Made by a program: the position numbers and the translations under genes. From IMG/VR virus record IMGVR_UViG_3300043409_000503, positions 1-54,928 of that record: a stretch of 54,928 nt of DNA. One strand, given 5' to 3'. The stretch comes from a virus. Lineage: Duplodnaviria > Caudoviricetes. The notes beneath the pieces were generated by a model that saw only the letters and a program-made list of their open reading frames with translations, did not search any database and was not told the DNA's origin. Every line of letters starts with the position of its first letter. Position 1 is the first letter of the stretch. Below, piece after piece: positions 24,788 through 41,186 of the stretch.

Positions 24788-24794
24788 GGAAATA

Positions 24795-25091
24795 ATGAAA
24801 AATATGAAAAAGATGGCTGATGGTGGCTTGACCGATATGGGCCCAGACATGGGCGCTAACGTGGCTACTGGTATTGGTAAAATATCTGAGGGTGCACAAG
24901 CGCTTGGCTCGTCTCTTAACCAGATCAACCAGGCAGTAGGTACATCTGAGCCGGGCTTTCAGGCTATGACCACCTTATCTCCGTCACCCGCGGGCAGCTT
25001 AGGCCGTCAGCTAGGGTACAAGAAGGGCGGCAGCATCAAATCAAAGGCAAGCACGGGCGAGTCTCGCTCAAAGAAATCACCTGGATGGTAA
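24795..25091 (+). CDS. Hypothetical protein with MADGG and YKKGG motifs
   Basis: GAGG RBS. Confidence 0.7.
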   Translation: MKNMKKMADGGLTDMGPDMGANVATGIGKISEGAQALGSSLNQINQAVGTSEPGFQAMTTLSPSPAGSLGRQLGYKKGGSIKSKASTGESRSKKSPGW

Positions 25092-25100
25092 AGGGTTGTC

Positions 25101-26174: not shown

Positions 26175-26515
26175 TGCCGATATTCTTAGACACAACTGGC
26201 CTAACTAATCTTGCAATCGGTGTTTGTGATCGATGCAAGATGAAGCGCACGTTTGTCTCATTGCAGTCGGACCCTAACTTCCCTGGTTTGCGCGTATGCG
26301 ACCAGGGTTGTAAGGATCAGTTCGATCCGTATAGACTACCTGCTAGGAAGACGGAGCGCATTAATTTGAGATTTCCTCGCCCAGATACAAGCGTTGCAGT
26401 GGATCCAAACGCTATCGTAACGGGCGGTTATGGGGACTTTGAGTTATCGACGAACCAAAACACGCAGACCCCAGAAAATAATGGGAATCTTGACATCATT
26501 TCCCCGAGCGAATAA
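26174..26515 (+). CDS. Small Cys-rich neck-region protein
   Basis: CDRC...VCDQGC; TAATG coupling. Confidence 0.75.
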   Translation: MPIFLDTTGLTNLAIGVCDRCKMKRTFVSLQSDPNFPGLRVCDQGCKDQFDPYRLPARKTERINLRFPRPDTSVAVDPNAIVTGGYGDFELSTNQNTQTPENNGNLDIISPSE

Positions 26516-28416
26516 TGGCACAAGTTACGATTACCCAACTGCCGGCAGCGCAGCCGCTAACAGGCACTGAATCGGTTCCAATCAGTCAGAATGGCCAGAC
26601 GGTCCAGACGACAACGGGTGCGATTGCGAACTCGCCGACCCAGCAGCAGAGCTTTCTTACCGTAACGAACGAAGCTACGCTGCCTAACTCAAGACAATTA
26701 CAGGGCTCTACCGGTGTAGGGTTAACTGACACGGGCGCCCTTGGTACTTTGGCCGTTACATTGAACGGCGTATCAGGAAGCCTGGAGACGTGCACTGACG
26801 GGTTAATCTCAAAATCTAGCGGAACGGTAGTTGGCCGCACAATTACCGGCGGCAGCGGTGTTTCGGTTGCCAATGGCAATGGCGCAAGCGCTAACCCCGT
26901 AATCAGCTTAAATGGCACCATAGGGACGATTAACGGCCTCTCTGGTACTGGGATCATGGGATTGGTCAGCGGCTCGGCTGTGACCACCATGCAGATCATA
27001 GGGACGGCTAACCAGATATCGATTGTTAACGGATCTGGACCAGGCAATCCTACGGTAGCGATTGTTAGCAACCCAATTATTCCTGGCACTGGATCAATAA
27101 CGGTGCCTGTCGGAACCACAGCCGAGCGCCCTGGTGGTGTTAACGGCATGGTTCGCTACAACACGGATACTGCGTTGTTTGAGGGGTACATTAACGGCAC
27201 TTGGACAGCTTTTGCGTCAGGCTCTGGTGTTACCTCAATTGCGACCGGCACCGGGTTAACTGGTGGTCCGATAACCTCCACGGGCACGATCTCTCTTGCT
27301 AATACGGCGGTAACGCCTGGATCTTACACAAATGCGAATTTAACGGTTGACCAGCAGGGTCGGATTACTTTGGCCTCAAGTGGTGCCGCGGGTGGTGTAA
27401 CGACATTCAGCGCAGGCACCACGGGGTTCACGCCAAGCACTGCAACATCAGGTGCAATCACTTTAGCCGGCACTTTGGCAATTGCCAACGGTGGATCAGG
27501 CCAAACAACGGCTCAAACGGCAATGAACGCCTTTGCCGGGGCAGTTACAAGTGGATCGTACCTGCGAGGTAATGGCACGAATGTGGTGATGAACACCATC
27601 CAAGTTGCCGATGTTCCTACGCTTAACCAAAACACAACTGGCACTGCGGCTAATGTCACGGGCACTGTGGCGATTGCAAACGGCGGTACAGGCCAGACTA
27701 CAGCAGGCGCGGCGTTTAATGCTTTGTCGCCCATTACCACAGCCGGTGACTTGATCCTTGGTGACGGGGCAAATAGCGCTACTCGTTTGGGTATTGGTGC
27801 TAATGGTTACCTGCTGACATCTAACGGAACGACCGCGTCATGGGCTGCGGCTCCTGCTGGCGGTGTAACTACGTTTGCAGGCGGCACTACTGGGTTAACT
27901 CCGGCGTCTGCTACCTCTGGGGCAATATCTTTAGCTGGTACATTGGCTACTACCAATGGCGGCACTGGGTTGACTTCGTTTACAGCAAACGGCATTACTT
28001 ACGCTTCATCAACAAGCGCCTTGGCTACTGGCTCGGCGTTGACATTTGATGGTACAAACCTGTCAACAACTGGGCAGGTCATTTCCACTAAAACTGGAAG
28101 CCCAACAGATAACGCTGGTCAGGTTTACTTGAACGGCGCAACTAGCAATCGTGTTGAATGGAGCACAGCAGGTACAGGTGCGCCAGCGTTTACTACAAGA
28201 AGCGCCGGTACTAAATTGTTGATGTACCCCGCAATTTCTGGCAGCCAGGTTGACTATGCTATGGGTATTAATGCTGCAACAATGTGGTCTAGCGTCCCAG
28301 TTGCCTCATCTTCCTTTTATTTTAAATGGTTTGGTGGGGAAACAGAGGTTGCAAGTTTAGATGGAACAGGCGCATTTACCGCAGTTGGCGGCATTTCAGG
28401 CGGCACATTTAGTTAA
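26515..28416 (+). CDS. Tail fibre protein
   Basis: Gly/Thr-rich; GTLAIANGG-type repeats; duplicated GGVTTF...TSGAI.LAGTLA segment. Confidence 0.85.
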   Translation: MAQVTITQLPAAQPLTGTESVPISQNGQTVQTTTGAIANSPTQQQSFLTVTNEATLPNSRQLQGSTGVGLTDTGALGTLAVTLNGVSGSLETCTDGLISKSSGTVVGRTITGGSGVSVANGNGASANPVISLNGTIGTINGLSGTGIMGLVSGSAVTTMQIIGTANQISIVNGSGPGNPTVAIVSNPIIPGTGSITVPVGTTAERPGGVNGMVRYNTDTALFEGYINGTWTAFASGSGVTSIATGTGLTGGPITSTGTISLANTAVTPGSYTNANLTVDQQGRITLASSGAAGGVTTFSAGTTGFTPSTATSGAITLAGTLAIANGGSGQTTAQTAMNAFAGAVTSGSYLRGNGTNVVMNTIQVADVPTLNQNTTGTAANVTGTVAIANGGTGQTTAGAAFNALSPITTAGDLILGDGANSATRLGIGANGYLLTSNGTTASWAAAPAGGVTTFAGGTTGLTPASATSGAISLAGTLATTNGGTGLTSFTANGITYASSTSALATGSALTFDGTNLSTTGQVISTKTGSPTDNAGQVYLNGATSNRVEWSTAGTGAPAFTTRSAGTKLLMYPAISGSQVDYAMGINAATMWSSVPVASSSFYFKWFGGETEVASLDGTGAFTAVGGISGGTFS

Positions 28417-28427
28417 GGAAAATAGAT

Positions 28428-28922
28428 ATGGCACAAACAAACTACACGCCTATATCGTTGTATTACAGTACAACGGCGGCGGCTGTTCCTTCAAATACAA
28501 ACCTTGTCCCTGGTGAGCTTGCTCTCAATATTCAGGACATGAAGCTGTACTGCGAGAACGCAGCGGGGACAGTTACCTTACTAGCCTCTAATGCGAGTAG
28601 TACGGGCACCGTATCAACGGTTGGCTGGACTGGCGGCATTGTCTCAGTAGCTAACCCAACGACTACGCCTGCGCTAACAATTGCAGGCACCTCTGGCGGG
28701 GTCCCATATTTTAGTAGCGGGACAACCTGGGCATCTTCTGCTGCCTTGTCGCAGTACGGGGTTGTGTACGGCGGTGGTGCTGGTGCTGCGCCTGTTGCTA
28801 CAGCGGCAGGTACAACAGGGCAAGTCTTAACGGCCACAACGGGTGGAGCACCTACCTGGGCTACTCCCTCTGGCGCATCAAAAGGTCAAGCAATTGCCTT
28901 TTCAATTATTTTTGGCTTGTAA
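28428..28922 (+). CDS. Short tail fibre protein with Mtd-N/hyaluronidase-N-like N-terminus
   Basis: LVPGELALNIQDMKLY; GTTGQVLT...PTW. Confidence 0.7.
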   Translation: MAQTNYTPISLYYSTTAAAVPSNTNLVPGELALNIQDMKLYCENAAGTVTLLASNASSTGTVSTVGWTGGIVSVANPTTTPALTIAGTSGGVPYFSSGTTWASSAALSQYGVVYGGGAGAAPVATAAGTTGQVLTATTGGAPTWATPSGASKGQAIAFSIIFGL

Positions 28923-28931
28923 GGATAAATC

Positions 28932-29330
28932 ATGGCAAACCCGAACATTGTAAATGTAACAAGCATTCTTGGTACAACTACTTACCTCACGCCTTCCGCT
29001 ACTACTGCTGTTGTCTTGCTGCCTAACGCTGCGGCTTCTGGTCTGGTCTATAAGATCAACCAGATCGTATGCGCTAACGTGAACGGGGCAAGCGCGGTAA
29101 ATGCGACTGTGGCTATTTACACTAACGGCGCTGTGGCTCAAGGCTCGGCACCTAGCGGTGGCACTGCTTACCCGGTGATCTCTACGATCTCAGTGCCTGC
29201 TAGTGCATCTGTGATTGCGGTGGATAAGACGACTGCTATCTATTTGATGGAGGGATCCTCTATTACAGTAACAAGTGGCACGGCAAGCGGGATTACGTAC
29301 ACCATTAGCTACGAATCCATCGCAAGTTAA
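28932..29330 (+). CDS. Tail-associated structural protein
   Basis: MANPNIVNVTSILG...YLMEG...ISYESI; TAAGGA RBS. Confidence 0.75.
   Translation: MANPNIVNVTSILGTTTYLTPSATTAVVLLPNAAASGLVYKINQIVCANVNGASAVNATVAIYTNGAVAQGSAPSGGTAYPVISTISVPASASVIAVDKTTAIYLMEGSSITVTSGTASGITYTISYESIAS
29318..29330 (+). repeat. 13-bp direct repeat CATCGCAAGTTAA, left copy
   Basis: Exact second copy at 35701-35713. Confidence 0.85.
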
Positions 29331-29341
29331 GGGGTAGCCCC

Positions 29342-30481
29342 ATGAGCATTAGACAGTACAACTTAGGCAGCATTGTCAAGCCGGGGTTTAATCCGCTCGG
29401 GGTGCAGACGAGTGTAACTACTTACCAGCCATATTTATATAGTTGGGGCGTAAATACTTACGGGCAATTAGGTTTAAGTAATACAACAACTTATTCTTCG
29501 CCTAAGCAAGTAGGTTCTTTAACGGATTGGTTAAGTATTTCTTCTGGATCATATAATGTTGCCGCAATAAAATCTGACGGAACTTTGTGGTCTTGGGGGC
29601 GCAACAATCAGGGGCAATTAGGTTTAGAGGATACGGTTAGTAGATCATCTCCAGTACAAGTTGGTTCTTTAACTGGTTGGAGTAGCGTTGCAGGTGAAGT
29701 TACAAGCATTCTTGCCATTAAAACAAATGGCACTTTATGGGCGTGGGGTAATAGCGGAGATGGGCAATTAGGTCTTGGAAATACAGCTTCTTATTCATCA
29801 CCTAAACAAGTTGGCGCTCTTACTAATTGGAAACAAGTTTCTATAGGTACATCAACTCTAGCAATTAAAACAGATGGAACTTTGTGGTCTTGGGGTGGTA
29901 ATGGTCAAGGGCAGTTAGGACTTAATAGTGTAAATTTTTATTCTTCCCCTAAACAAGTTGGGTCACTGACTAATTGGGCTTATGTAAATATTAAAAATGA
30001 AAGTTCTCTCGCTATTAAGACTGATGGCACTTTATGGGCATGGGGATATAACATACAAGGAGTACTAGGGCTTGGTGACACTGTTAATCGTTCATCACCA
30101 GTTCAAATTGGCGCTCTTACTAATTGGTCAAAAGTTTATGGAATAAGAATTTTTTCATCTATTGCTGTTAAAACAGACGGCACATTGTGGACTTGGGGGT
30201 TTAATAATCAAGGGCAATTAGGGTTAGGGAATACGACTGCTTATTCCTCTCCCAAACAAGTTGGTTCTCTAACTAACTGGTTACTGCCTGCTGGTGGCGG
30301 CAGAACTGGGTTTTGCATTAAAACAAATGGCACTTTATGGGCGTGGGGACAAAATAATCTTGGTCAATTGGGATTGAACAGCAGCACTTATTATTTTTCC
30401 TCCCCTAACCAAGTTGGGTCATTAACAACATGGCTACAAGTTTCTGCTGGCTATCAATTTACTAGCGCCCTTCTTTATTAA
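29342..30481 (+). CDS. RCC1/BLIP-II repeat beta-propeller protein A (7 repeats)
   Basis: Seven ~50-aa repeats, consensus AIKTDGTLWxWGxNxxGQLGLG...SSPKQVG. Confidence 0.93.
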   Translation: MSIRQYNLGSIVKPGFNPLGVQTSVTTYQPYLYSWGVNTYGQLGLSNTTTYSSPKQVGSLTDWLSISSGSYNVAAIKSDGTLWSWGRNNQGQLGLEDTVSRSSPVQVGSLTGWSSVAGEVTSILAIKTNGTLWAWGNSGDGQLGLGNTASYSSPKQVGALTNWKQVSIGTSTLAIKTDGTLWSWGGNGQGQLGLNSVNFYSSPKQVGSLTNWAYVNIKNESSLAIKTDGTLWAWGYNIQGVLGLGDTVNRSSPVQIGALTNWSKVYGIRIFSSIAVKTDGTLWTWGFNNQGQLGLGNTTAYSSPKQVGSLTNWLLPAGGGRTGFCIKTNGTLWAWGQNNLGQLGLNSSTYYFSSPNQVGSLTTWLQVSAGYQFTSALLY

Positions 30482-30490
30482 AATAAAACT

Positions 30491-31642
30491 ATGCCATCAA
30501 CTACATTAGTATCAGGCGTCCAATACTCCGGCGTATGGACAATGCAACAGGTGAATGCCGCTGTAGCTGCGGGGACTTGGACGGGGTTCCCTCAGTTGTA
30601 TACTTGGGGAGGTAACGGCCAAGGTCAATTAGCTCTTGGAAATACTACAAATTATTCTTCACCTAAGCAAGTAGGCTCTTTGACTAATTGGGCTAAAGTA
30701 GGTGCGGCAAGGGGCGCAGCTTTTTCAATCAAAACTGATGGCACATTGTGGGCTTGGGGACAAAATGCTTTTGGGGTTTTAGGAATTGGCAATTCAACAT
30801 ATTATTCTTCGCCTAAACAAGTTGGGGCTTTAACCACTTGGTCAAATATAGGGAATGGAAGTTATCACACAATAGTAACAACAATAAGTGGGGAACTATG
30901 GGTTTGGGGCCGGAACAATGCTGGTCAACTAGGACTAGGCAACACAACAAATTATTCTTCACCTAAACAAGTAGGATCTTTAACTACTTGGTTAAATTCG
31001 TCTGGAGGGGCTGCGCATACTGTTGCTATTAAAACAGACGGCACTTTATGGTCTTGGGGACAAAATGCGTATGGACAATTAGGTTTAGGAAATATAACTT
31101 ATTATTCTTCCCCAAAGCAAGTTGGCTCTTTAACTACTTGGTTAAAAACTGCATGTGGTTTTTATTATACCGTTGCCCTTAAAACTGATGGGACATTGTG
31201 GGCTTGGGGGAATAATTCATATGGTCAACTTGGGCTAACAAATCTTACAGATTATTCTTCGCCTAAACAAGTTGGGTTATTAACAACGTGGGCTAATATA
31301 TCAATTAAAAGTTATACTACTATTGCAACCACAACAAGTGGCGCTCTTTATGCTTGGGGTAGAAATAACGCCGGTCAATTGGGTTTAGGCAATATAACTT
31401 ATTATTCTTCGCCTAAACAAGTAGGGGCTTTAACAAACTGGGCAAGCATTGCCGCCGCCAATTCAAATACTGTTTCTATTAAAACTGACGGCACTTTATG
31501 GGCTTGGGGACTTAACAATAATGGGCAATTAGGATTAAACAACACAACTGATTATTCTTCCCCGAAACAAGTTGGTTCTTTATCATCTTGGTCAAAAATA
31601 GCATGTGGTGATACTTCTAATAATACAATTAAAATATCATGA
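30491..31642 (+). CDS. RCC1/BLIP-II repeat beta-propeller protein B (7 repeats)
   Basis: Seven repeats; N-terminal SGVQYSGVW...GTWTGFPQ leader. Confidence 0.93.
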   Translation: MPSTTLVSGVQYSGVWTMQQVNAAVAAGTWTGFPQLYTWGGNGQGQLALGNTTNYSSPKQVGSLTNWAKVGAARGAAFSIKTDGTLWAWGQNAFGVLGIGNSTYYSSPKQVGALTTWSNIGNGSYHTIVTTISGELWVWGRNNAGQLGLGNTTNYSSPKQVGSLTTWLNSSGGAAHTVAIKTDGTLWSWGQNAYGQLGLGNITYYSSPKQVGSLTTWLKTACGFYYTVALKTDGTLWAWGNNSYGQLGLTNLTDYSSPKQVGLLTTWANISIKSYTTIATTTSGALYAWGRNNAGQLGLGNITYYSSPKQVGALTNWASIAAANSNTVSIKTDGTLWAWGLNNNGQLGLNNTTDYSSPKQVGSLSSWSKIACGDTSNNTIKIS

Positions 31643-33408
31643 AAAAAACACTCCATTTCCTCTCCGGCATTCCACGCTCAGGCTCAACCGTCTTGGCGGC
31701 TATTCTTAACCAGAACCCAATGACCCACGTATCTACTACGTCTGGTCTGGTTCATGCGTTGGATGGTCTGGCTAATACGTGGCATTCTGCCGGTCTGTTG
31801 AACGAGAATGACCCTGAGCGCAAGCTGTTAGCGCAGACTATGCGTGGTGCCATTGACGCCTTCTACGAGGACACAGAGGCCCCTGTCATCATTGATAAGT
31901 CCCGTGGCTGGCCTATCGCTCAGATCATGGCGGCTATGGGTCAGGTACTGAACCGCACCCCTAAGATTATTGCTACGGTCAGATCTGTCCCTGACTGCGC
32001 TGCTTCATTTATTCGTATCGCAAAGCCGGACGATCTTGACGAGTTTATGGCGACAGGCCAGCTAATGGATCATCTACGGGCTGCGTATATCTCTCTCCAG
32101 AACGGCTACGAGTTTGCGCCTGAGAATTTCCTGTTCGTTGAGTACGAAGACCTGCTGTCTGATCCAAAGGGTCAGCTAGAGCGCATCCATGCCTTCCTAG
32201 AGCTTCCTGCGTTTACCTACGACTTCAATAACATCGACGGCTCTACGGTTGCCGAGGATGACGAGAACCTGCACGGCACGAAGGGTATGCACGACGTTAA
32301 ACCTGTACTGGCTGCGCAGCATAAGCAAGACCCGAAAGACCTGCTGAAGCATCACTATTCGCAGTTCTGCCAGCCTGAGTTCTGGCTAGATAAGCCACGC
32401 ACAGCGCCTGAGTTGCACGACCTTGATCTACAGCTTGCCGCGTCAACGATTGGTGACTTCTCTGAGGGTTGGAGAATCTCGCAAAAGTTGGAAGCGGAAG
32501 AGCCGGGTAACCACCGTGCTGCCTACAATCGTGGCTGGTACTACTTGCGTCAGGGTCAGATCCAAAAGGGTTATAGCCTGATGGACAGGGGCCGTATCGT
32601 AGGCGTGTTCGGTAACAAGCGCCCTGACGTACCTACCCAGCAGTGGGATGGTAAGACTAAGGGTACGGTTCTGCTAAACCTTGAGGGTGGATTGGGCGAC
32701 CAGATACATCAAGTTCGTTACGCTAAGTACATCGCGGAGCGTGGTTGCAAGGTTATTGTGGCCTGCTCTGGTCAGCTTGCGTCCTTGTTTACTGGCGTAG
32801 AGGGCGTCTCTAGCGTCGTGCAGCATGAGGCTGTGTTCGGGGTCTATCACGACTTCTGGGTAGCTGGTATGTCTGCTCTGGTGCCGCTAGGGTTTGAGTT
32901 GAGTGATATTTCTGGTGCGCCTTACCTTGCCAAGCCGGTAGTGATCAAAGGCCGCAAGAAGCGCATTGGCTTGCGGTGGCAGGGTCAGTCTAAGTTTGAG
33001 CATGAGCATCACAAGAAATTCCCGTATGAGTTGATGTTTAGCGCGGTGAAGGATGCGGATGTAGAGTTTATTAGCCTGCAACGGGACGAGGGTGCTGATG
33101 CCTGTCCTGCGTGGGTGCGTCAGGTTCCATTGAATAGCTGGGAAGATACACGGGCTGCTGTGGCAAGCTGTGACCTTGTGATTAGCTCATGTACGAGTGT
33201 GAGTCACTTGGCTGCTGCGATGGGTGTAGAGACATGGGTAGTTATTCCGGTTATGGGATACTTCTTGTATGCGATGGACGGCGACAAGTGTGCGTACTAC
33301 GACAGCATGACGTTAGTTCGGCAAGAAGTGTTTGGTGACTGGCAGGCTCCCTTCGACCATATCAAAGATCGTTTAGGCACTAAGCCTGCTCTAAGGAGCG
33401 TTGCATGA
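31639..33408 (+). CDS. Sulfotransferase + TPR + GT9-like glycosyltransferase fusion
   Basis: PAPS loop GIPRSGST, IIDKS, YEDLLSDP; TPR-like helices; EGGLGDQI, FISLQ, CDLVISSCTSVSHLAAAMG. Confidence 0.85.
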   Translation: MKKTLHFLSGIPRSGSTVLAAILNQNPMTHVSTTSGLVHALDGLANTWHSAGLLNENDPERKLLAQTMRGAIDAFYEDTEAPVIIDKSRGWPIAQIMAAMGQVLNRTPKIIATVRSVPDCAASFIRIAKPDDLDEFMATGQLMDHLRAAYISLQNGYEFAPENFLFVEYEDLLSDPKGQLERIHAFLELPAFTYDFNNIDGSTVAEDDENLHGTKGMHDVKPVLAAQHKQDPKDLLKHHYSQFCQPEFWLDKPRTAPELHDLDLQLAASTIGDFSEGWRISQKLEAEEPGNHRAAYNRGWYYLRQGQIQKGYSLMDRGRIVGVFGNKRPDVPTQQWDGKTKGTVLLNLEGGLGDQIHQVRYAKYIAERGCKVIVACSGQLASLFTGVEGVSSVVQHEAVFGVYHDFWVAGMSALVPLGFELSDISGAPYLAKPVVIKGRKKRIGLRWQGQSKFEHEHHKKFPYELMFSAVKDADVEFISLQRDEGADACPAWVRQVPLNSWEDTRAAVASCDLVISSCTSVSHLAAAMGVETWVVIPVMGYFLYAMDGDKCAYYDSMTLVRQEVFGDWQAPFDHIKDRLGTKPALRSVA

Positions 33409-34526
33409 GCTTTAGATACGTATCAGGGATAAATAAGCCGGGGTTTAATCCTCTTGCGGCTCAGACGAGTACGCTTTTATATAACTTATATAGTTGGGGC
33501 GATAATACGCAAGGTCAGTTAGGCTTAGGAAATACAACTGCTTATTCCTCCCCTAAACAAGTAGGATTGTTAACTGCTTGGTCAAAAATATCATCTGGAA
33601 ATAATTACTCTATTTCAATTAAAACAGATGGATCTTTATGGTCTTGGGGAAGAAACGACCAAGGACAATTAGGTTTAGGAAACACAACATATTATTCCTT
33701 ACCAAAACAAGTTGGATCTTTATTAACATGGGCTAATATCCAAACCGGCACTTTCCATACCATAGCTACCAAAACTGATGGAACATTGTGGACTTGGGGA
33801 AATGGCGCTAATGGTAAGTTGGGTTTAGGTAATCTCACTTCTTATTCCTCTCCTAAGCAAGTTGGCGCACTAACTAATTGGTCTAAGGGGTTTGGTGGCA
33901 GAAATTTTACTGTTGCAATTAAAACAGATGGAACATTATGGTCTTGGGGGCAAAATGCTTTTGGAAATCTTGGTTTAGGAAACACAACATATTATTCTTC
34001 TCCAAAGCAAATTGGAGCATTAACTAATTGGCTTAATGTTGCTTGTGGATATGGTCATGTTGCTGCCACTAAAACTGATGGCACTCTTTGGACTTGGGGG
34101 TTTAATCCAAGGGGTCAGTTGGGTCTTGGAAATACAACTTATTACTCGTCTCCAAAACAGGTTGGCGCATTAACTACTTGGTTACGTGTTGCCGCTGGTT
34201 ATCCTTACACCATGGCTACCAAAACTGGCGGTACGTTATGGAGTTGGGGTCGCAATCAATTTGGTCAATTAGGCCTTAGTAATACAACTAGTTATTACTC
34301 TCCAAAACAGGTTGGTGCATTGACCACTTGGCTTGATGTATCTGTTAAAACTAATAGTACTATAGCGACTAAAACAGACGGGACTTTGTGGTCATGGGGT
34401 AGGAATGAGACGGGGCAATTAGGTTTAAATAATTTAACTTACTATTCCTCACCAAAACAAATTGGCTCGTCAACTACATGGTTAAGTATAGCAATTGGTG
34501 ACTTTACTACTTTAGCCATAGGATAA
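33405..34526 (+). CDS. RCC1/BLIP-II repeat beta-propeller protein A' (7 repeats)
   Basis: Seven repeats; KPGFNPL leader as in protein A. Confidence 0.93.
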   Translation: MSFRYVSGINKPGFNPLAAQTSTLLYNLYSWGDNTQGQLGLGNTTAYSSPKQVGLLTAWSKISSGNNYSISIKTDGSLWSWGRNDQGQLGLGNTTYYSLPKQVGSLLTWANIQTGTFHTIATKTDGTLWTWGNGANGKLGLGNLTSYSSPKQVGALTNWSKGFGGRNFTVAIKTDGTLWSWGQNAFGNLGLGNTTYYSSPKQIGALTNWLNVACGYGHVAATKTDGTLWTWGFNPRGQLGLGNTTYYSSPKQVGALTTWLRVAAGYPYTMATKTGGTLWSWGRNQFGQLGLSNTTSYYSPKQVGALTTWLDVSVKTNSTIATKTDGTLWSWGRNETGQLGLNNLTYYSSPKQIGSSTTWLSIAIGDFTTLAIG

Positions 34527-34529
34527 AAC

Positions 34530-35675
34530 ATGGCACAAACAATCGTATCAGGCGTTCAATACTCAGGCATCTGGAGCCTCGCGGGTCAAGCGAACGCTGT
34601 GGCGTTGGGGACGTGGACGGGGTTCCCTCAGTTATACACTTGGGGCGCGGGTGGTTTTGGCGCTTTAGGCCTTGGGAATTTAACTAACTATTCGTCTCCT
34701 AAACAAGTTGGGTTACTAACTAATTGGAAAAGTCTATCTGGTGGAAGATTGCAAGCAATTGCAACTAAAACTGACGGGACTCTTTGGGCTTGGGGATTTA
34801 ACGCTACAGGTCAATTAGGCTTAGGCGATACAACAACTAGATCATCCCCTGCCCAAGTTGGGTTACTAACTAATTGGTTAAATATTGCTGGTGGCTTTTA
34901 TAACACAGCCGCAACAACAACTAATGGCACTTTATATGCTTGGGGTGATAACACAAGAGGTCAATTGGGATTAGGCAACATAACTTCTTATTCATCCCCT
35001 AAACAAGTTGGAGCTTTAACTAATTGGCTTGAAATATCTGGTGGGTATAAAATTTTTGTTGCCATTAAAACTAATGGAACTTTGTGGAGTTGGGGGGCTA
35101 ATGCTTACGGACAACTAGGCTTAGGTGATGTAATTGACAGATCATCTCCAGTCCAAGTAGGTGCTTTGACTAATTGGTTAAAAGTTTCAGCAAAATATTT
35201 TTCTTGCGTAGCAATTAAAACAGACGGAACTCTTTGGTCATGGGGAATAAACACTGCTGGAGTATTGGGGTTAGGGGATACTACAAATAGATCATCTCCA
35301 GTACAAGTTGGCGCATTAACTACTTGGTCTAGCATATCAAGCAGTGGATTTTGCTCTGCAATTAAAACTGACGGAACATTATGGGTTTGGGGGAGTAATG
35401 GTTCTGGGCAATTAGGTTTAGGCGACACAACTGCTCGTTCATCTCCTGTTCAAGTTGGGTCGTTAACAAATTGGTCAAAAACATTTAATGCTTTAGAAAG
35501 TATTACATCTATTAAAACTGATGGAACTTTATGGGGATGGGGGCTAAACAATGTTGGCCAACTTGGTTTAGGAAGTGTAACTAATTATTCTTCACCTAAA
35601 CAAGTTGGTAATTTAACTTCATGGCTAAACATTGCTAACACTTATAACACTGGCATGGCTATAAAAACATCATGA
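34530..35675 (+). CDS. RCC1/BLIP-II repeat beta-propeller protein B' (7 repeats)
   Basis: Seven repeats; SGVQYSGIW...GTWTGFPQ leader as in protein B. Confidence 0.93.
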   Translation: MAQTIVSGVQYSGIWSLAGQANAVALGTWTGFPQLYTWGAGGFGALGLGNLTNYSSPKQVGLLTNWKSLSGGRLQAIATKTDGTLWAWGFNATGQLGLGDTTTRSSPAQVGLLTNWLNIAGGFYNTAATTTNGTLYAWGDNTRGQLGLGNITSYSSPKQVGALTNWLEISGGYKIFVAIKTNGTLWSWGANAYGQLGLGDVIDRSSPVQVGALTNWLKVSAKYFSCVAIKTDGTLWSWGINTAGVLGLGDTTNRSSPVQVGALTTWSSISSSGFCSAIKTDGTLWVWGSNGSGQLGLGDTTARSSPVQVGSLTNWSKTFNALESITSIKTDGTLWGWGLNNVGQLGLGSVTNYSSPKQVGNLTSWLNIANTYNTGMAIKTS

Positions 35676-35713
35676 ACAAAACACTCCACTTCCTCTTTGG
35701 CATCGCAAGTTAA
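35672..35713 (+). pseudogene. Truncated duplicate of sulfotransferase 5' end (MNKTLHFLFGIAS*)
   Basis: Matches MKKTLHFLSGI of 31639 with the same ATGA overlap; ends in the 13-bp repeat. Confidence 0.85.
35701..35713 (+). repeat. 13-bp direct repeat CATCGCAAGTTAA, right copy
   Basis: Exact copy of 29318-29330. Confidence 0.85.
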
Positions 35714-35741
35714 AATTACATTTTTTCACAAGGAGTCATAA

Positions 35742-36134
35742 ATGACACATTACGTTCAAGTAGTCGGAAACGAAGTTAAGCAGGTCTGGGACACCCCTCC
35801 CGCAGAAGGCGTAGGCAACAACGGCTGGAAGAATGCTGTTGAGGTGCGTCCTGCTATTACTGCTCACCGTCAAGGCTACACAGCCCACCGGTTTGATCTG
35901 GCGACGGATCCAGTCCAAATTATCTGGGACACCTACAACATCCCAGTTGCAGACCGCAAGGCAGGCATGATTGCTAACGCGAACATGGGCTTCCAGATGG
36001 AGATGCAACGTCAGGCGATGAACCCAGCTAATTATGACCCAGCAGCACTGGCCGCAGCACAGGCAGCTATTGCCCCAAAGGTTGCCGCTATTAACGCTGC
36101 AACAACGCATGACGATCTAGACGCACTGCTGTGA
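35742..36134 (+). CDS. Putative tail fibre assembly/chaperone-like protein
   Basis: AAGGAG RBS; C-terminal INAATTHDDLDAL resembles fibre chaperone ends. Confidence 0.55.
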   Translation: MTHYVQVVGNEVKQVWDTPPAEGVGNNGWKNAVEVRPAITAHRQGYTAHRFDLATDPVQIIWDTYNIPVADRKAGMIANANMGFQMEMQRQAMNPANYDPAALAAAQAAIAPKVAAINAATTHDDLDALL

Positions 36135-36562
36135 AGGTTCTGATCTGCGGACTGCCGGGGTCTGGTAAGACTACCCTAGCAGAAGCGTTAGCAAGGGAGC
36201 TTCAGTGCGTCCACTTTAACGCTGACGAGGTTCGTAAGGAGATCAACAAGGATCTCGGCTTCAGCGTTGAGGATAGGATTGAGCAGGCTAGGCGCATGGG
36301 GATACTGTGCGACATAGCAAGTCGGTGGGGGTCGGTGGTACTTGCAGACTTTGTATGTCCTACGCCGGAGACAAGGGAAGCCTTTGGTGCCGACTTCACG
36401 ATCTGGGTAGACCGGATCAAAGAGGGCAGGTTTGAGGATACGAACAAGCTGTTTGTTCCGCCGGAGCATTACGATGTGCGGATTACGGGTAAGTTTGATT
36501 CCTGTTTCCCTAGCCACCACGCAGACGACTTAGCGGCACGGATTAAGAAGATGCTGAAGTGA
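36131..36562 (+). CDS. cysC: Adenylylsulfate (APS) kinase-like protein
   Basis: GLPGSGKTT, ADEVR...DLGFSVEDRIEQARR. Confidence 0.8.
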   Translation: MKVLICGLPGSGKTTLAEALARELQCVHFNADEVRKEINKDLGFSVEDRIEQARRMGILCDIASRWGSVVLADFVCPTPETREAFGADFTIWVDRIKEGRFEDTNKLFVPPEHYDVRITGKFDSCFPSHHADDLAARIKKMLK

Positions 36563-36951
36563 TTGTCTTTACTAACGGCTGCTTTGATGTGCTTCACAGA
36601 GGCCACGTAGAGTACCTAGAGGCGTCCAAAAGGCTTGGGACAAGGTTAGTTATAGGTTTAAACTCAGACGCGTCTGTGAGGCGTTTAAAGCCCGATAGGC
36701 CGATTAACAGCCAAGGGGATCGGCAGGCGGTATTGCTGGCCTTGCGTTGCGTGGATGAGGTACTGATTTTTGATGAGGACACGCCCTACCAGCTAATCCA
36801 AAGGGTTAGGCCGGACATTCTCACAAAGGGCGGGGATTACAGAATTCATCAGGTTGTAGGACATGACTTGGTAAAGCAGACGATTATTGTGCCGTTTTTG
36901 GACGGGCATTCTTCTACTAGGATTATCAATGCGCTTGCACGGAACGGTTGA
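36559..36951 (+). CDS. hldC: Heptose-1-phosphate nucleotidyltransferase (HldE domain II / RfaE2-like)
   Basis: FTNGCFDVLHRGH, GLNSDASVRRLK, KGGDY, FLDGHSST. Confidence 0.85.
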   Translation: MIVFTNGCFDVLHRGHVEYLEASKRLGTRLVIGLNSDASVRRLKPDRPINSQGDRQAVLLALRCVDEVLIFDEDTPYQLIQRVRPDILTKGGDYRIHQVVGHDLVKQTIIVPFLDGHSSTRIINALARNG

Positions 36952-37282
36952 GAAGGGCTGGGGGTCAGAGCTAATCTGGGCTACTAACGACAAGTATTGC
37001 GGCAAGCTGATGACGTTTAATGAAGGTGCTAAGTTCTCGATGCATTTTCATGCGGTAAAAGAAGAGACTTGGTTGGTGCAGAGCGGTGTCTTTAAGGTTA
37101 TTACAATTGACACAACAGATGCTTCCCGCGAAGAGGTTATTTTGGCTGCTGGGGATACATGGCATAACCCGCCCTTGGTGCCGCATCAATTGATCTGCAT
37201 TGGTGCTGGGGTAATCCTAGAGGTATCAACGGCTGATTCAGTAGAAGATAACTACCGAGTAGAGAAGGGCGATAGCCAATGA
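36929..37282 (+). CDS. Cupin-fold sugar isomerase-like protein
   Basis: KGWGSE...SMHFHAVKEETW...PHQL...EVST; ATG 36929. Confidence 0.8.
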   Translation: MRLHGTVEKGWGSELIWATNDKYCGKLMTFNEGAKFSMHFHAVKEETWLVQSGVFKVITIDTTDASREEVILAAGDTWHNPPLVPHQLICIGAGVILEVSTADSVEDNYRVEKGDSQ

Positions 37283-37986
37283 ATATTCTAGTAATCGGCG
37301 ACGCCTGCATTGACGAGTACCGCTACGGGGTAATTACACGGATGAACCCTGAGTCTGCTGCCCCGTTGATGAGTTATGACGACAGCGAGGAACGGCTTGG
37401 GATGGCGCTTAATGTTGCCCAGAACCTAAAGTCCTTGGGTGCAGATGTGACGTTATCGACTAGCGAGGATATGTCCCGCAAGATCAGATACATTAACCGC
37501 AGGACTGGTGAGCAGTTACTGCGGGTAGATATAGACGTAGAGGCAGTCCCTTACGAGTTTTCCTATGATTACGACGAGTACGATGCGATTGTGATCTCTG
37601 ACTATAACAAGGGGTTTGTCACTGACGAGACGGTTAAGGTCTTGCGTAAGGAGTTTTCTGGCCCGATCTACATGGATACCAAGAAGACTAACCTAGGGGA
37701 CTTCCCCGGCATTTATTTCAAGATTAATGAGCGTGAAGAGCTTGCCTGCACCTCAACAACTGAAACCGTCATTGTGACGTATGGCGCACTTGGCTGTAGC
37801 TACATGGGGCATCTTTACCCTGCTAAGGCGGTTGATGTGGTGGACGTATGCGGCGCTGGTGATGTATTCCTAGCGGCTATGGTTGTGAAGCACCTAGAGA
37901 CTGACGACATGGACGTAGCGCTTAACTTTGCTAACGAGAAGGCCGCTTTATCCTGCCAGAGCTTAGGGACGGTATGCGTATCCTAA
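37279..37986 (+). CDS. hldA: PfkB-family heptose-7-phosphate kinase-like (HldE domain I / RfaE1-like)
   Basis: ILVIGDACIDEY...RMNPESAAP, ISDYNKG, DVCGAGDVF. Confidence 0.8.
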   Translation: MNILVIGDACIDEYRYGVITRMNPESAAPLMSYDDSEERLGMALNVAQNLKSLGADVTLSTSEDMSRKIRYINRRTGEQLLRVDIDVEAVPYEFSYDYDEYDAIVISDYNKGFVTDETVKVLRKEFSGPIYMDTKKTNLGDFPGIYFKINEREELACTSTTETVIVTYGALGCSYMGHLYPAKAVDVVDVCGAGDVFLAAMVVKHLETDDMDVALNFANEKAALSCQSLGTVCVS

Positions 37987-38750
37987 TCACAGGACATAAG
38001 GGCTTTATTGGCCAGAACATGGTTAAGGCACTGTCTGACCATGAGCTAAGCCTGTGTGAATGGGGGGATAATTATTCCCTTTATGGGATAGATCAAGTTA
38101 TTCATTTGGGTGCGATCTCAGACACGCAGTGTACTGATTGGGATGCGCTAAGAAGGCAGAATGTTGAGTTTTCGCTAACCTTGATTGAGCGGTGCCAGCA
38201 AAAGCGGATACCTATCCAGGTTGCGTCCTCTGCGGCTGTTTACGGGGCAAGCAATACGACCTTCTGTGAGACGGATAAAACCGCACCAGGTAACATGTAC
38301 GCGCTATCTAAGGAGATGGTTGAGCAATATCTGGGTAAGATTGCCCCAGTAGCGCCGGTACAGATTTTTAGGTACTTTAACGTGTACGGCCCTCACGAGG
38401 ATCATAAGGGTGAGCAGGCGTCACCGTTCCATAAGTTTAGGGAGCAGGCTAAGACTGGAACGATTAAGATATTTGAGGGCAGTGAGAACTTTAAGCGGGA
38501 CTTTATTCATGTTGGACGCGTGATTGAAGTCCATAAGAAGTTCTTTGAAATTGACAAGTCAGGCATTTGGAACGTTGGCACTGGCAGAACGATGTCGTTT
38601 TTAGATGTTGCTAAATTAGCCCGCGCAGAGTTTGGTGCGGAGATAGAAACGGTTCCAATGCCAGACCTGCCGGGTTATCAAAAGTTTACTCAAGCTAATG
38701 TATTAAAACTTAACGAAGACGCCATATATGGATCCCCAATTTTTAATTAA
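37974..38750 (+). CDS. hldD: ADP-L-glycero-D-manno-heptose 6-epimerase-like
   Basis: TGHKGFIG, HLGAISDT, ASSAAVYG, YALSK, FRYFNVYGPHEDHKGEQAS. Confidence 0.85.
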   Translation: MRILITGHKGFIGQNMVKALSDHELSLCEWGDNYSLYGIDQVIHLGAISDTQCTDWDALRRQNVEFSLTLIERCQQKRIPIQVASSAAVYGASNTTFCETDKTAPGNMYALSKEMVEQYLGKIAPVAPVQIFRYFNVYGPHEDHKGEQASPFHKFREQAKTGTIKIFEGSENFKRDFIHVGRVIEVHKKFFEIDKSGIWNVGTGRTMSFLDVAKLARAEFGAEIETVPMPDLPGYQKFTQANVLKLNEDAIYGSPIFN

Positions 38751-38949
38751 TGTTGGCTTTGCCGCTGCCGGTTTCTTTGGGGGTTGGCTCATTAACAGCA
38801 TGACCCGTTCCATTACGCGGCTTGAAGATAAGATGTCTGATCTTCCTTTGCTTTATGTCAACAAGGATGATTACAAGTCAGACATTACTGACATGAAAAA
38901 TATGCTGAGTAAGATATTTGACAAACTTGATGGGAAGGCCGACAAGTGA
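38728..38949 (+). CDS. Small membrane protein (holin/antiholin-like)
   Basis: N-terminal TM helix plus coiled coil; lysis cluster. Confidence 0.6.
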   Translation: MDPQFLINVGFAAAGFFGGWLINSMTRSITRLEDKMSDLPLLYVNKDDYKSDITDMKNMLSKIFDKLDGKADK

Positions 38950-38952
38950 AAT

Positions 38953-39486
38953 ATGGATCCGATTACGATTGGGGCGGCCTTCGCAGTCGCAAAGGCGGCA
39001 GTTGCTGGCGTAAAAGAGGCAATCGCCCTCGGTAAAGAGGTGCAGGAGTGTTACCACGACATTAGTGCCTTCTTTACGGCGCAGGGTGAGATACAGGCCG
39101 CGGTAGTCCAGCAGGAGCATGATAAGAAGTTAGGTAAACCAGTACAAAAAGACGCTACTGCTGAGGCGTTAGACGCAATGTTTGCCAGTAGGCAGATGTT
39201 CAAAATGGAAGTTGAGCTGCGTGAGGCTCTGATATACGGCTCTGGTAACGAGTCTGGGTTGTATGAAGAGATGTGCCAGCGGCGGGATGCCATCATTCAA
39301 GAGCGCAGGGACGCAATAGAGGAAGAGGCTAGGCTGGAGCGTATGCGCCTGCGGGAGATTGAGCGCAGGAAAGAGCAGCGTATCCAAAGCATTCAAGAAT
39401 GGCTGGCGGTAGTGTTTGGCGTGTCAATCAGCAGCTTTATCATGTACGCGGTGTGGTGGATGTTCAAAAACGGGGGCAAAGATTAA
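38953..39486 (+). CDS. Coiled-coil membrane protein of lysis cluster
   Basis: MDPITIG start, coiled coil, C-terminal TM helix. Confidence 0.7.
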   Translation: MDPITIGAAFAVAKAAVAGVKEAIALGKEVQECYHDISAFFTAQGEIQAAVVQQEHDKKLGKPVQKDATAEALDAMFASRQMFKMEVELREALIYGSGNESGLYEEMCQRRDAIIQERRDAIEEEARLERMRLREIERRKEQRIQSIQEWLAVVFGVSISSFIMYAVWWMFKNGGKD

Positions 39487-40001
39487 TGCTGACTCTTCTT
39501 TCAACTTTAGTAAGCTTCTTAATGGGTGGCTTGCCTAAAATCCTTGATTTTTTTCAGGACCGTGCAGATAAAGGCCATGAGATTAAGTTAGCCCAGATGC
39601 AAACAGAGCGTGAGCTACAACTAGCTGCCGCGGGTTTTGCTGCTCAGGCTAAGATTGAAGAGATCAAATTAGATGAGATTAAGGTCCAATCTTCCGCAGA
39701 TACCCAGCAAGCCTTAATGGGTGCCCAGGAGGCAGAAATGCAGGCCATCTATGCTCACGACATGAGCCTGAACGAGGGGACTAGCCAATGGATGAAGAAC
39801 CTTCGTGCTGGTGTGCGCCCGATTATCACGTTCGGCTTCTTTTTCCTGTTAGTGGCAATTGACGTGGGTTTGTACATTCACGGCATTAACAATAATGTAT
39901 CTTTCAACGTTCTTGCCGACCAGCTATGGGATGATGAGACTCAGGCCTTGTTCGCTTCAATTATTGCCTTCCATTTTGGGGGCCGGGCGTTTGGCAAATG
40001 A
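39486..40001 (+). CDS. Putative holin (multi-TM)
   Basis: TAATG coupling; VRPIITFGFF, IIAFHFGGR; precedes lysozyme. Confidence 0.7.
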   Translation: MLTLLSTLVSFLMGGLPKILDFFQDRADKGHEIKLAQMQTERELQLAAAGFAAQAKIEEIKLDEIKVQSSADTQQALMGAQEAEMQAIYAHDMSLNEGTSQWMKNLRAGVRPIITFGFFFLLVAIDVGLYIHGINNNVSFNVLADQLWDDETQALFASIIAFHFGGRAFGK

Positions 40002-40477
40002 AAGTCAGCCAGCAATGCTTAGCAATGATTCGGCACCACGAGGGTACCAGGCTGCGGCCTTATCGGTGCCCCGCTCTTTTGTGGACATGCCTTGTTGGAC
40101 ACGTATGCGACCCGAACCACGCAAGGATCCCGTTAGAGCAGAGGAAGTCTCTGCCGATACCGGAGGGGTGGAACAGACAATTTACGGTACAAGAAGCTGA
40201 TGCGGTACTTGCTAAAGACCTTGAGAGGTTTATCCGAGGCGTATCCAAGTATTGCCCTGGTCCTATTACTCAAGGTCAGTTGGATGCACTGGTCAGCTTT
40301 AGCTTTAACCTTGGGTTAGGCACCCTCCAGCGGAGCACTTTACGGCAGAAGCATAACCGGGGTGACTACGAGGGTGCCGCAAAGGAATTTTTAAAGTTTA
40401 CGAAGGCAGGCGGCAAGGTTCTTAGGGGACTTGTCGCTAGACGAAGTGACGAGCGGTTCCAATATTTGGCCAAATAA
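39998..40477 (+). CDS. Endolysin, GH24 phage lysozyme
   Basis: E-x8-C-x5-T catalytic triad, QLDALVSFSFNLG, GLVARRSDE. Confidence 0.92.
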   Translation: MKVSQQCLAMIRHHEGTRLRPYRCPALLWTCLVGHVCDPNHARIPLEQRKSLPIPEGWNRQFTVQEADAVLAKDLERFIRGVSKYCPGPITQGQLDALVSFSFNLGLGTLQRSTLRQKHNRGDYEGAAKEFLKFTKAGGKVLRGLVARRSDERFQYLAK

Positions 40478-40485
40478 ATACACGT

Positions 40486-40514
40486 TTTACATAGTTGCAA
40501 CATGACCTTAAAAT
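40486..40514 (+). promoter_or_regulatory. Putative sigma70 promoter for second tail operon
   Basis: TTTACA-17 bp-TAAAAT in intergenic gap. Confidence 0.5.
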
Positions 40515-40548
40515 GGCCGTAAGTCTATGAAAGTTTAAGGAAAGTACC

Positions 40549-41184
40549 ATGACAGCCGCCGTTGTGATGACCTATGACAGCCTAGTGGCTGACGTGATCT
40601 CCTACCTGGAGCGGACTGATACCGCCACGGTAGATAAGATTCCTACTTTTATTATGTTAGCTGAGCAGGTAATTGCCAGCCAGATCAAGTTTCTAGGCAA
40701 CCTGACGGTCCAGGAAAGCCAGATGGTTGCTACGCAGTCGGTGATTGATAAGCCTGCTCGGTGGCACAAGACGGTCTCCATGAACGTCACCGTGGCCAAC
40801 AACCGGTACCCGGTCCTGTTGCGCAAGCCTGAGTACCTGCGGGAGTACTGGCCAAATCCTAGCGAGACGGAAGTCCCAAAGTTTTACTCTGACTACGATT
40901 ACACTCATTGGTTAGTGGCGCCGACGCCTGACCTTGACTATAACTTCGAGGTTATCTACTACGAGCGGGTTCAGCCTTTGAGCTCAAGTAACCAGGTTAA
41001 TTGGTTTACAACCTATGCTCCGCAGGCTTTGCTGTATGGAACGTTACTGCAGTCGATGCCGTTCTTGAAGAACGATGACCGGATGCCTATGTGGCAGGCT
41101 CAGTACGACCTTATTATCAACACTCTGAAGGCCGAGGATGCGATGCGCATAGCCGACCGTCAGGCCGTCGCATTGGACTCCTAA
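40549..41184 (+). CDS. Tail/adaptor protein
   Basis: IPTFIMLAE...APTPD...NWFTTYAPQALLYGTL. Confidence 0.75.
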   Translation: MTAAVVMTYDSLVADVISYLERTDTATVDKIPTFIMLAEQVIASQIKFLGNLTVQESQMVATQSVIDKPARWHKTVSMNVTVANNRYPVLLRKPEYLREYWPNPSETEVPKFYSDYDYTHWLVAPTPDLDYNFEVIYYERVQPLSSSNQVNWFTTYAPQALLYGTLLQSMPFLKNDDRMPMWQAQYDLIINTLKAEDAMRIADRQAVALDS

Positions 41185-41186
41185 CT

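Follow-up and report, generated by a model that had tools for sequence, protein, structure and literature searches.

RCC1 propeller genes linked to a TPR-containing GT9-like glycosyltransferase in phages and bacteria: a candidate protein-modification module of a tailed phage

An RCC1-glycosyltransferase gene module

The window analysed here is the whole IMG/VR virus record IMGVR_UViG_3300043409_000503, a genome of 54,928 bases from a tailed phage (Caudoviricetes) with an estimated completeness of 98%. Positions 29342-38750 hold one run of genes, all on the + strand. The run encodes four RCC1 propellers, a fusion enzyme composed of a sulfotransferase domain, a TPR segment and a GT9-like glycosyltransferase (GT) domain, an adenosine 5'-phosphosulfate (APS)-kinase-like protein, HldC-, HldA- and HldD-like proteins, and a cupin. 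The main new result is that the linkage between RCC1 genes and this GT extends outside the clade of the phage. The same propeller-enzyme pairing is found in unrelated phages and in predatory bacteria, which suggests that the enzyme probably decorates the propellers. In the favoured reading, which we hold in even balance, the block from gene g132 to gene g130 is an adsorption-apparatus module, and its tail-associated RCC1 propellers are the substrates of the fusion enzyme encoded among them. The data show how the domains fold, which genes are present and that their linkage is conserved; RCC1 as the acceptor, heptose as the sugar, the modified residue, and the presence of RCC1 on the virion are inferred.

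The gene order is g132, RCC1a, RCC1b, the fusion gene, RCC1c, RCC1d, g130, the APS-kinase-like gene, the HldC-like gene, the cupin gene, the HldA-like gene, the HldD-like gene, and the lysis genes. An initial annotation had described this tightly packed run on the basis of the letters alone. Its place between the tail-fibre-like genes and the lysis genes, its strand and its gene content were confirmed, and so was the packing, with 4-base overlaps (ATGA or GTGA) at five junctions and overlaps of 13 and 23 bases at two others. The fusion gene is set between RCC1 genes with 4-base overlaps. The domain matches in the run are too strong for chance to be an issue.

Linkage within the phage clade

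Relatives of the fusion are abundant: 1158 were found among the 8000 candidates scored in one search, and scans of IMG/VR gave 213, and then at least 589, matching stretches. The 134 loci that were kept represent 96 distinct contigs, including 84 with a full-length fusion, 10 in which the fusion is cut by the contig end, and 2 other cases. Clade loci that contain both g132 and g130 were defined as fully flanked (n = 58). All of them carry RCC1 open reading frames (ORFs): one in 4 loci, two in 8, three in 22, four in 23, and nine in 1, but never zero. The only seeming exception carries a short RCC1 gene directly upstream of the fusion gene. Co-occurrence of the RCC1 genes and the fusion gene in related phages, on which the initial annotation depended, was thus seen in 58/58 fully flanked loci. 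The nine RCC1 ORFs around the fusion gene belong to one IMG/VR relative (L058, 454-17249), compared with one to four elsewhere; this looks like an expansion of the propeller genes.

The two marker genes encode small conserved proteins. The g132 gene (28932..29330, + strand) opens the module and lies upstream of the RCC1 genes in most related loci. The structural model of g132 (mean predicted local distance difference test, pLDDT, 86.2; predicted TM-score, pTM, 0.82) is all-beta. Its best fold matches are marginal, and include the cement protein of phage KHP40 (Z 9.3), the Ena appendage subunit (Z 9.2), and virus turret proteins (Z 8.7-9.0). A jelly-roll is predicted from this model. The g130 gene (35742..36134, + strand) closes the RCC1 block and co-occurs with the fusion gene in related loci. 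No match to g130 was found in Pfam, PHROG or NCBIfam. Of the atlas clusters that have a name, Phage_tail_APC (0.89) and Caudo_TAP (0.88) lie closest to g130, and serve as leads only. The g130 protein is possibly a fibre-assembly chaperone; it has no similarity to the chaperone-like RCC1 neighbours of phages S-SRM01 and BUCT-ZZ01.

Linkage outside the phage clade

The pairing was also found in phages outside the clade. In S-SRM01, a T4-like Synechococcus phage, a long-tail-fibre gene is followed by genes for an RCC1 protein, a DUF4376 protein, a second RCC1 protein, a TPR-GT relative and a 2-oxoglutarate (2OG) oxygenase. Four hypothetical genes further on, this phage encodes another RCC1 protein, a sulfotransferase, a hypothetical protein and a glycosyltransferase. 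In phage BUCT-ZZ01, a tail fibre gene, a tail-assembly-chaperone-like gene, a gene for a 700-aa double RCC1 protein and a gene for a TPR-GT relative are all adjacent. The single-cell marine virus AG-345-E08 (L145, 158-19256) has three RCC1 genes, a TPR-GT gene, a sulfotransferase gene, HldC and HldA genes, and a cupin gene of the same type in one run. The AG-345-E08 run also holds a GT25 enzyme, three genes of 2OG-Fe(II)-oxygenase type (one of them prolyl-hydroxylase-like), and a short-chain dehydrogenase/reductase (SDR); these genes hint at further protein modifications. Two phages of Gram-positive bacteria, Clostridioides phage LIBA2945 and Brevibacillus phage Jenst, encode large RCC1 proteins in the interval from the tail-fibre or adhesion genes to the lysis genes. 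The regions fetched from these two phages have no annotated GT of this kind. The location of RCC1 by the tail-fibre genes in LIBA2945 and Jenst supports a role of phage RCC1 propellers in the adsorption apparatus. An IMG/VR scan with an alignment of the GT domain returned close relatives only (70-95%) and no distant phage contexts.

When prokaryotes were scanned with one genome for each species, 80 loci were obtained, which were split at 34% identity to the GT domain. At or above this value there are 65 loci, 40 of them with an RCC1 gene within 3 kb; where both flanks extend for at least 3 kb, an RCC1 gene lies within 3 kb in 24/31. Below 34% identity, an RCC1 gene is found within 3 kb in 5 of 15 loci, and in 2/9 of the fully flanked subset. 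On the complete chromosome of Bdellovibrio bacteriovorus Bd16 (L166, 6842-18261), a 336-aa TPR-GT, a small methyltransferase-like ORF and two RCC1 proteins are encoded together. The two RCC1 proteins (1091 and 1073 aa) are three-propeller proteins with an N-terminal SRRAFL motif of the Tat type. A 1038-aa protein with a signal-like N-terminus is encoded upstream in the same locus. In two Planctomycetota loci (L207 and L223), an RCC1 gene is located directly upstream of the GT gene.

Other arrangements of the GT family were also observed. The TPR-GT9-like module occurs as 3-6 tandem copies in proteins of 1300-3100 aa (P0130, P0136, P0141, P0145, and others). In one metagenome-assembled genome (MAG) of the Planctomycetota (L213, 10001-19881), five module copies stand in a row beside an HldD-like gene, and no RCC1 gene was found there. 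The GT relatives with 27-32% identity from Kordiimonas, Ruegeria, Azospirillum and Halieaceae (L216-L226) mostly have no RCC1 neighbour and have no sulfotransferase neighbour. They are probably a separate subfamily with another target.

Domain architecture of the fusion enzyme

The fusion enzyme (31639..33408, + strand) has 589 aa. It consists of a TPST-like sulfotransferase domain (residues 1-258), a TPR segment (about 259-320), and a GT9-like domain with the GT-B fold (about 340-588). Residues 7-190 match Pfam Sulfotransfer_3 with an E-value of 1e-16. With the fusion sequence alone, the TPR_17 match (E 0.029) and the Glyco_transf_9 match (E 0.32) are weak, and both domains are clear from the fold. 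Glyco_transf_9 is matched at E up to 0.01 by 6/42 family members. These 42 diverse relatives, taken from a search of 1.84 billion representatives, were aligned. The AlphaFold2 model of the fusion has a mean pLDDT of 93.7 and a pTM of 0.83. An enzyme that holds both transferase domains, as had been read from the sequence at first, is borne out by this model and by the fold matches described below.

Residues 1-258 of the model fit best on the protein-tyrosine sulfotransferases TPST1, TPST2 and the tick TPST (Z 18.2-19.0, root-mean-square deviation (rmsd) 3.5-3.9, 236-241 aligned residues). The polyketide sulfotransferases come next (Z 16.3-16.4), followed by the heparan-sulfate enzymes (Z about 14). 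A search of the family profile against PDB sequences also placed TPST first among the sulfotransferases (E 7e-11). The profile and the model both indicate that the sulfotransferase domain is closest to the protein-tyrosine sulfotransferases. Residues from about 259 to 320 appear as TPR helices in the profile and the model.

The GT domain was compared in the same way. Residues 342-588 match WaaC (Z 16.3, rmsd 3.2, 230 aligned residues), WaaF (Z 16.0) and a GT9 protein of Veillonella (Z 15.6). TibC superposes on residues 329-588 (Z 15.5, 243 aligned residues), and ties with the lipopolysaccharide (LPS) enzymes. The top 50 fold matches of the GT domain include no other glycosyltransferase family, except for one unrelated chain at Z 12.8. 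In a Foldseek search, TibC leads the GT9 matches (E 1e-4), and the protein glycosyltransferases with TPR and GT-B parts, SPY (E 3.5e-5) and OGT (E 1.7e-4), are also found. With hhalign, a profile of 23 stand-alone relatives matched E. coli WaaC/WaaF/WaaQ/WaaU (E 2.5e-5, probability 75%), in an alignment that spans only 60 columns over the donor-binding motif. A GT4 control (WaaG and WaaB) against the same profile gave a probability of 0.14% and no alignment. The GT-B/GT9-like nature of the domain, on which the earlier proposal relied, is therefore supported both by the fold match to WaaC, WaaF and TibC and by the matched donor motif.

The donor motif of GT9 enzymes is D-[TS]-G-x-x-H, and its Asp (D261 in WaaC) is invariant in the four E. 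coli GT9 proteins. The aligned motif of the fusion family is S-C-T-S-x-x-H, and among 23 family members its Cys, Thr and His do not vary. By model and sequence, the GT domain is GT9-like in fold and motif, yet a divergent branch. ADP-heptose is favoured as the donor because the best fold matches of the GT domain all belong to the GT9 family, and most of these are characterised heptosyltransferases. It is also favoured because Hld genes recur with the GT in four divergent contexts.

RCC1 propellers and the blade loop

The four RCC1 proteins are predicted 7-bladed propellers, and all are encoded on the + strand. RCC1a (29342..30481, 379 aa) matches Pfam RCC1 with 7 repeats at E 8e-70 and WD40_RLD at E 1e-90. 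RCC1b (30491..31642, 383 aa), RCC1c (33405..34526, 373 aa) and RCC1d (34530..35675, 381 aa) also have 7 Pfam RCC1 repeats each, with E-values of 3e-77, 1e-81 and 1e-67, respectively. The four ORFs score 225-269 bits, well over the Pfam cut-off of 21.7. The count of four 7-repeat proteins given in the initial annotation is therefore correct, with E-values from 1e-67 to 1e-81. A scan of the whole record found 28 RCC1 repeats, 7 per ORF. The paralogues are 52-58% identical to RCC1a.

The blade loops are conserved. The TTYYSSP-type motif noted earlier is real, since S-S-P is present in 27/28 blades. Relative to it, position -3 is Tyr in 21 blades and Arg in 6; of the 28 blades, 19 have Asn at -7 and 22 have Thr at -5. 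TPSTs prefer a Tyr in an acidic context.

Supply genes for the sulfate and heptose donors

Four genes for putative donor-supply enzymes and a cupin gene follow g130 on the + strand. The APS-kinase-like P-loop protein (36131..36562, 143 aa) is shortened, and matches Pfam APS_kinase over residues 3-84 (E 1.6e-16). Its gene lies 2.7 kb downstream of the fusion gene. The 18 best PDB matches are all APS kinases or APS-kinase domains (best E 1e-9), and they cover residues 3-82 only. The protein keeps the P-loop and the DLGFS..DR..RR stretch, aligned with human and bacterial APS kinases. It scores 59 bits with TIGR00455, against an equivalog cut-off of 138.7, and falls short of the full-length enzyme, which includes a C-terminal lid.

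The HldC-like protein (36559..36951, 130 aa), a putative heptose-1-phosphate adenylyltransferase, matches TIGR02199 at E 8e-51. It covers profile positions 13-142 of 144 and scores 171.7 bits, narrowly under the equivalog cut-off of 181.5. The HldA-like protein (37279..37986, 235 aa), a putative heptose-7-phosphate kinase, is shortened. It matches TIGR02198 (E 7e-32) in 3 stretches, with 110.8 bits against a cut-off of 345 and 235 aa against a profile of 315, and has a PfkB C-terminal motif (E 2e-16). The HldD-like protein (37974..38750, 258 aa), a putative ADP-heptose 6-epimerase, is also shortened, and matches TIGR02197 at E 8e-60 with 202.7 bits against an equivalog cut-off of 274.6. It shares 39% identity with E. 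coli RfaD (E 5e-55), and retains the SSAA, YxxxK and HKG motifs in the alignment. Relative to RfaD, its nucleotide-binding part in the N-terminal region lacks about 40 residues. All four supply enzymes thus score under the NCBIfam equivalog cut-offs, and the APS-kinase-, HldA- and HldD-like proteins are shorter than the profiles.

The small cupin is of the metal type. Its gene is placed at 36929..37282; the longest ORF begins at TTG 36887, which sits 65 bases inside the HldC gene, and the ATG at 36929 is the more likely start. The protein matches Cupin_2 (E 3e-9) and MannoseP_isomer, the C-terminal part of mannose-6-phosphate isomerase (E 1.7e-6), and shows the HxH...E...H pattern of metal cupins. 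Among PDB sequences it matches generic metal cupins only. The cupin gene always occurs with HldC and HldA, both in the related loci and in AG-345-E08. No match to the GmhA isomerase (SIS_2) or the GmhB phosphatase (TIGR00213) was found in the 98%-complete record. As judged from the sequence, the phage-encoded pathway to ADP-L-glycero-D-manno-heptose is incomplete. It is no more than an idea that the cupin might isomerise sedoheptulose 7-phosphate in place of GmhA. The initial annotation had stated that steps toward both donors are encoded. This holds insofar as the APS-kinase-, HldC-, HldA- and HldD-like genes are present; the proteins are shortened or under the family cut-offs, and GmhA and GmhB have no counterpart.

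The supply genes are not a fixed part of the system, in contrast to what had been proposed. The full HldC-cupin-HldA-HldD cassette is present in 10/45 relatives with at least 3.2 kb of room, and the APS-kinase-like gene in 55/71 loci with at least 700 bases after g130. A tree was constructed from 38 fusion proteins, after 8/45 loci with incomplete or interrupted fusion matches were dropped and the window was added. The Hld label requires at least four changes (gains or losses) on this tree, and the Hld cassette is a mobile accessory. Hld genes nevertheless lie beside the GT family in four divergent contexts (L145, L154, L167 and L213).

That the supply genes come and go, and that the Hld and APS-kinase proteins are shortened and score under the family cut-offs, would fit a loose set of auxiliary metabolic genes by the tail genes, in which RCC1, the fusion, the APS kinase and Hld do not work together. 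Such a loose set is very improbable. The fusion gene is embedded among the RCC1 genes with 4-base overlaps, the RCC1-GT adjacency is kept in all 58 flanked clade loci and in 24 of the 31 distant genome loci, and the RCC1 family was matched in only 1/14 well-known control genomes.

HldA, HldC and HldD are enzymes of LPS-precursor synthesis, the best-characterised GT9 enzymes are the LPS core heptosyltransferases (WaaC and WaaF, Z 16), and there is a weak NoeE-like match (E 0.006). The GT9-like domain and the Hld enzymes might therefore act on the LPS core or another host glycan, with the sulfotransferase adding sulfate, and the remodelled envelope might block superinfection or the sticking of progeny to debris. 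We regard this as quite unlikely. A TPR domain is part of the enzyme, the nearest kin of its sulfotransferase domain act on protein tyrosine, and its linkage to RCC1 genes spans phyla. Its gene belongs to a late structural run, and the Hld cassette is an optional addition. Moreover, no tyrosine or serine recombinase (integrase or resolvase) was found in the 98%-complete genome, which argues against lysogenic conversion.

Proposed function and points against it

Modification of the propellers is the reading that we follow here. The fusion enzyme is regarded as a dedicated propeller modifier because it combines a TPR domain, a sulfotransferase domain nearest to protein-directed enzymes, and a heptosyltransferase fold in common with TibC. 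The TPR segment would hold the folded propeller. The GT9-like domain might then add a sugar, most likely heptose from ADP-heptose, to the [Y/R]-S-S-P loop of every blade. The TPST-like domain may add sulfate from 3'-phosphoadenosine 5'-phosphosulfate (PAPS) to the loop Tyr or to the sugar. The APS-kinase-like gene would raise the supply of PAPS, the optional HldC-cupin-HldA-HldD cassette would raise the supply of ADP-heptose, and the hosts may provide the missing steps of the pathway. Folded RCC1 proteins might be modified in the cytoplasm before export, in line with the Tat signals in Bdellovibrio. The decoration proposed in the initial annotation, with host LPS as its alternative, stands in one part: the GT9 and TPST folds and the gene linkage favour RCC1 over host LPS as the target. 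The other part, ADP-heptose as the donor, is only presumed.

Several points weigh against the proposed function. By sequence, the fusion scores 10.7 bits with the Pfam GT9 profile, under the cut-off of 22. The Asp that is invariant in GT9 is replaced by Cys in the donor motif, so that ADP-heptose is only an assumed donor and the donor may differ. The full Hld cassette is missing from 35/45 relatives, and the APS-kinase-like gene is lacking in 16/71 loci. Both facts, the residue change and the rarity of the cassette among relatives, count against a firm choice of donor. Among the fully flanked genome loci, RCC1 is missing within 3 kb in 7/31, one of which lies on the complete chromosome of Bdellovibrio sp. 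HCB337, and many of the 'genome' loci are MAG contigs that are possibly phage DNA themselves. The Ser/Thr-rich S-S-P loop is probably in large part the ordinary loop of bacterial RCC1 proteins; in RCC1 proteins with no GT neighbour, the patterns used for the contrast picked up few blades. No recognisable virion-attachment domain was found in the RCC1 proteins.

In addition, adjacency fits a substrate and a partner alike. The RCC1 proteins might be partners of the fusion, which would modify another virion protein (the fibre encoded at 26515-28416, g164 or g132) or build a sulfated glycan; the propellers would then be lectin-like receptor-binding units or scaffold units. The RCC1 copy number of 1-9 is as expected of exchangeable binding modules, and the fibre-like proteins and g132 are conserved neighbours as well. 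We consider a partner role unlikely. The RCC1-GT pair persists where the fibre genes differ or are absent, as in the Planctomycetota loci L207 and L223. Dedicated protein glycosyltransferases are usually encoded beside their repetitive substrate, as TibC is with TibA. The TPR part of such enzymes binds the protein substrate, as described for FlmG (PMC7591256).

A wider form of the propeller-modification reading can be put forward tentatively, as one that is possible although it would more readily fail than hold. In this form, which would amount to a widespread and as yet undescribed system, a TPR-GT9-like transferase, often together with a TPST-like sulfotransferase, would decorate each RCC1 blade, and the propellers would serve phages and Bdellovibrio-like predators, and possibly episymbiotic bacteria, in cell contact. 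In the present phage the transferases are fused and would be served by its own PAPS and ADP-heptose supply, in which the cupin may replace GmhA.

Genome context of the module

Besides the tail-fibre-like proteins and the endolysin, the record encodes a terminase, a portal protein, a capsid-protease-like protein, and large proteins of internal or virion type. No tRNA gene was found when the record was scanned. The phage looks like a lytic tailed phage. The nearest match of the terminase is from an uncultured phage (68% identity), followed by Caulobacter phages (41%). The most similar MAG contigs come from bins assigned to Caulobacter, Acidithiobacillus, Nitrosomonadales, Saccharibacteria and Bacteroidetes, and these bins are mutually inconsistent as a pointer to the host. 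A megablast search of the region against GenBank phages gave no match. A promoter and terminator scan of 23000-41500 found fewer sites than in shuffled sequence.

The upstream boundary of the module is formed by a 633-aa tail-fibre-like protein (26515..28416, + strand), which is rich in Gly, Thr and Ser and has a typical fibre N-terminus; its PHROG match is weak. Repeats similar to those of this fibre are found near the RCC1 and GT genes in Bdellovibrionales loci. The next gene encodes g164 (28428..28922, + strand), a small fibre-like protein, of which residues 7-65 match phrog_32294 'baseplate wedge subunit' (E 3e-7). Further upstream, at 24239-25091, two adjoining ORFs of 182 and 98 aa have a high content of Lys, Arg, Ala and Gly and share a C-terminal P-G-W.

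The downstream boundary is the lysis block (38728..40477, + strand), which contains three small membrane or coiled-coil proteins and the endolysin. The small proteins match phrog_462 and phrog_6637, and the endolysin (39998-40477, + strand) matches phrog_7 (E 2e-42). More virion genes are located 3' of the lysis genes. The region 40549-52932 holds large virion-type genes, among them an ORF of 1276 aa and the gene for a protein of 494 aa that contains an SLT transglycosylase domain. The latter is likened to the ejection proteins of short-tailed phages.

Significance and comparison with known systems

What RCC1 proteins do in prokaryotes and phages is for the most part unexplained, and the conserved enzyme-propeller pair gives both partners a testable function. 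One paper notes eleven RCC1 genes with a role that is not known in phage phAPEC6 (PMC7247149), and in another phage sulfotransferases are called functionally unclear (PMC10580990). A description of the RCC1/TPR-GT9/sulfotransferase module was not found in the literature on RCC1, phage sulfotransferases, heptosyltransferases and glycosylated virions, in a search that covered sources other than subscription journals and supplementary files. The literature matches to 'RCC1' that were examined proved to be names of algal strains or gene loci, and not the domain. If the proposed function is true, sulfation and heptosylation would extend the short list of modifications known from phage particles. 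Should adsorption depend on the modification, host range in natural waters would be affected as well. In Bdellovibrio, where the RCC1 proteins are GT-linked and carry Tat-type export signals, the same chemistry may serve predator-prey contact.

In our judgement the chances are even that the module belongs with the dedicated protein-modification enzymes that are encoded by their substrate genes. The genes for TibC and AAH lie beside those for their repetitive substrates, TibA and AIDA-I, respectively. The present system is like TibC/AAH in that a cytoplasmic enzyme with the heptosyltransferase fold is encoded beside a highly repetitive, beta-rich protein, and ADP-heptose is plausible here since hld genes travel with the module. 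However, the presumed substrate is an RCC1 propeller, whereas the substrates of TibC and AAH are beta-helix autotransporters. The family of TibC and AAH, the bacterial autotransporter heptosyltransferases (BAHT), is also marked by an iron-binding site and a dodecameric assembly. The phage enzyme also adds TPR and sulfotransferase domains, and its setting is a phage tail module.

The TPST enzymes TPST1 and TPST2 are nearest to the N-terminal domain of the fusion in profile and fold; PAPS would be needed in both cases, and an APS-kinase-like gene is nearby. However, the fusion shares only 14-17% identity with them, and the blade Tyr is not in an acidic context. The bacterial RaxST is counted among the protein-tyrosine sulfotransferases as well.

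The inner-core heptosylation of LPS (WaaC, WaaF, GmhA, HldE, GmhB and HldD) shares with the module the GT9 fold and the HldC-, HldA- and HldD-like enzymes. It differs in that the phage has no GmhA or GmhB and has Cys for Asp in the donor motif. The fusion appears to be soluble, with TPR and sulfotransferase domains, and its neighbours are RCC1 genes and not LPS genes.

Mycobacteriophages encode glycosyltransferases that probably decorate structural proteins of the same phage. This virion glycosylation involves another enzyme family, another target fold and another group of hosts than the present module, in which sulfation and donor-supply genes are added.

Finally, the order of domains resembles that of FlmG (Caulobacter), OGT and SPINDLY, in which a substrate-binding TPR part is followed by a GT-B catalytic part. 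For FlmG, an N-terminal TPR domain and a C-terminal GT-B domain are described, together with the modification of flagellins by this enzyme (PMC7591256). The catalytic domain of the fusion fits GT9 best, and not GT41.

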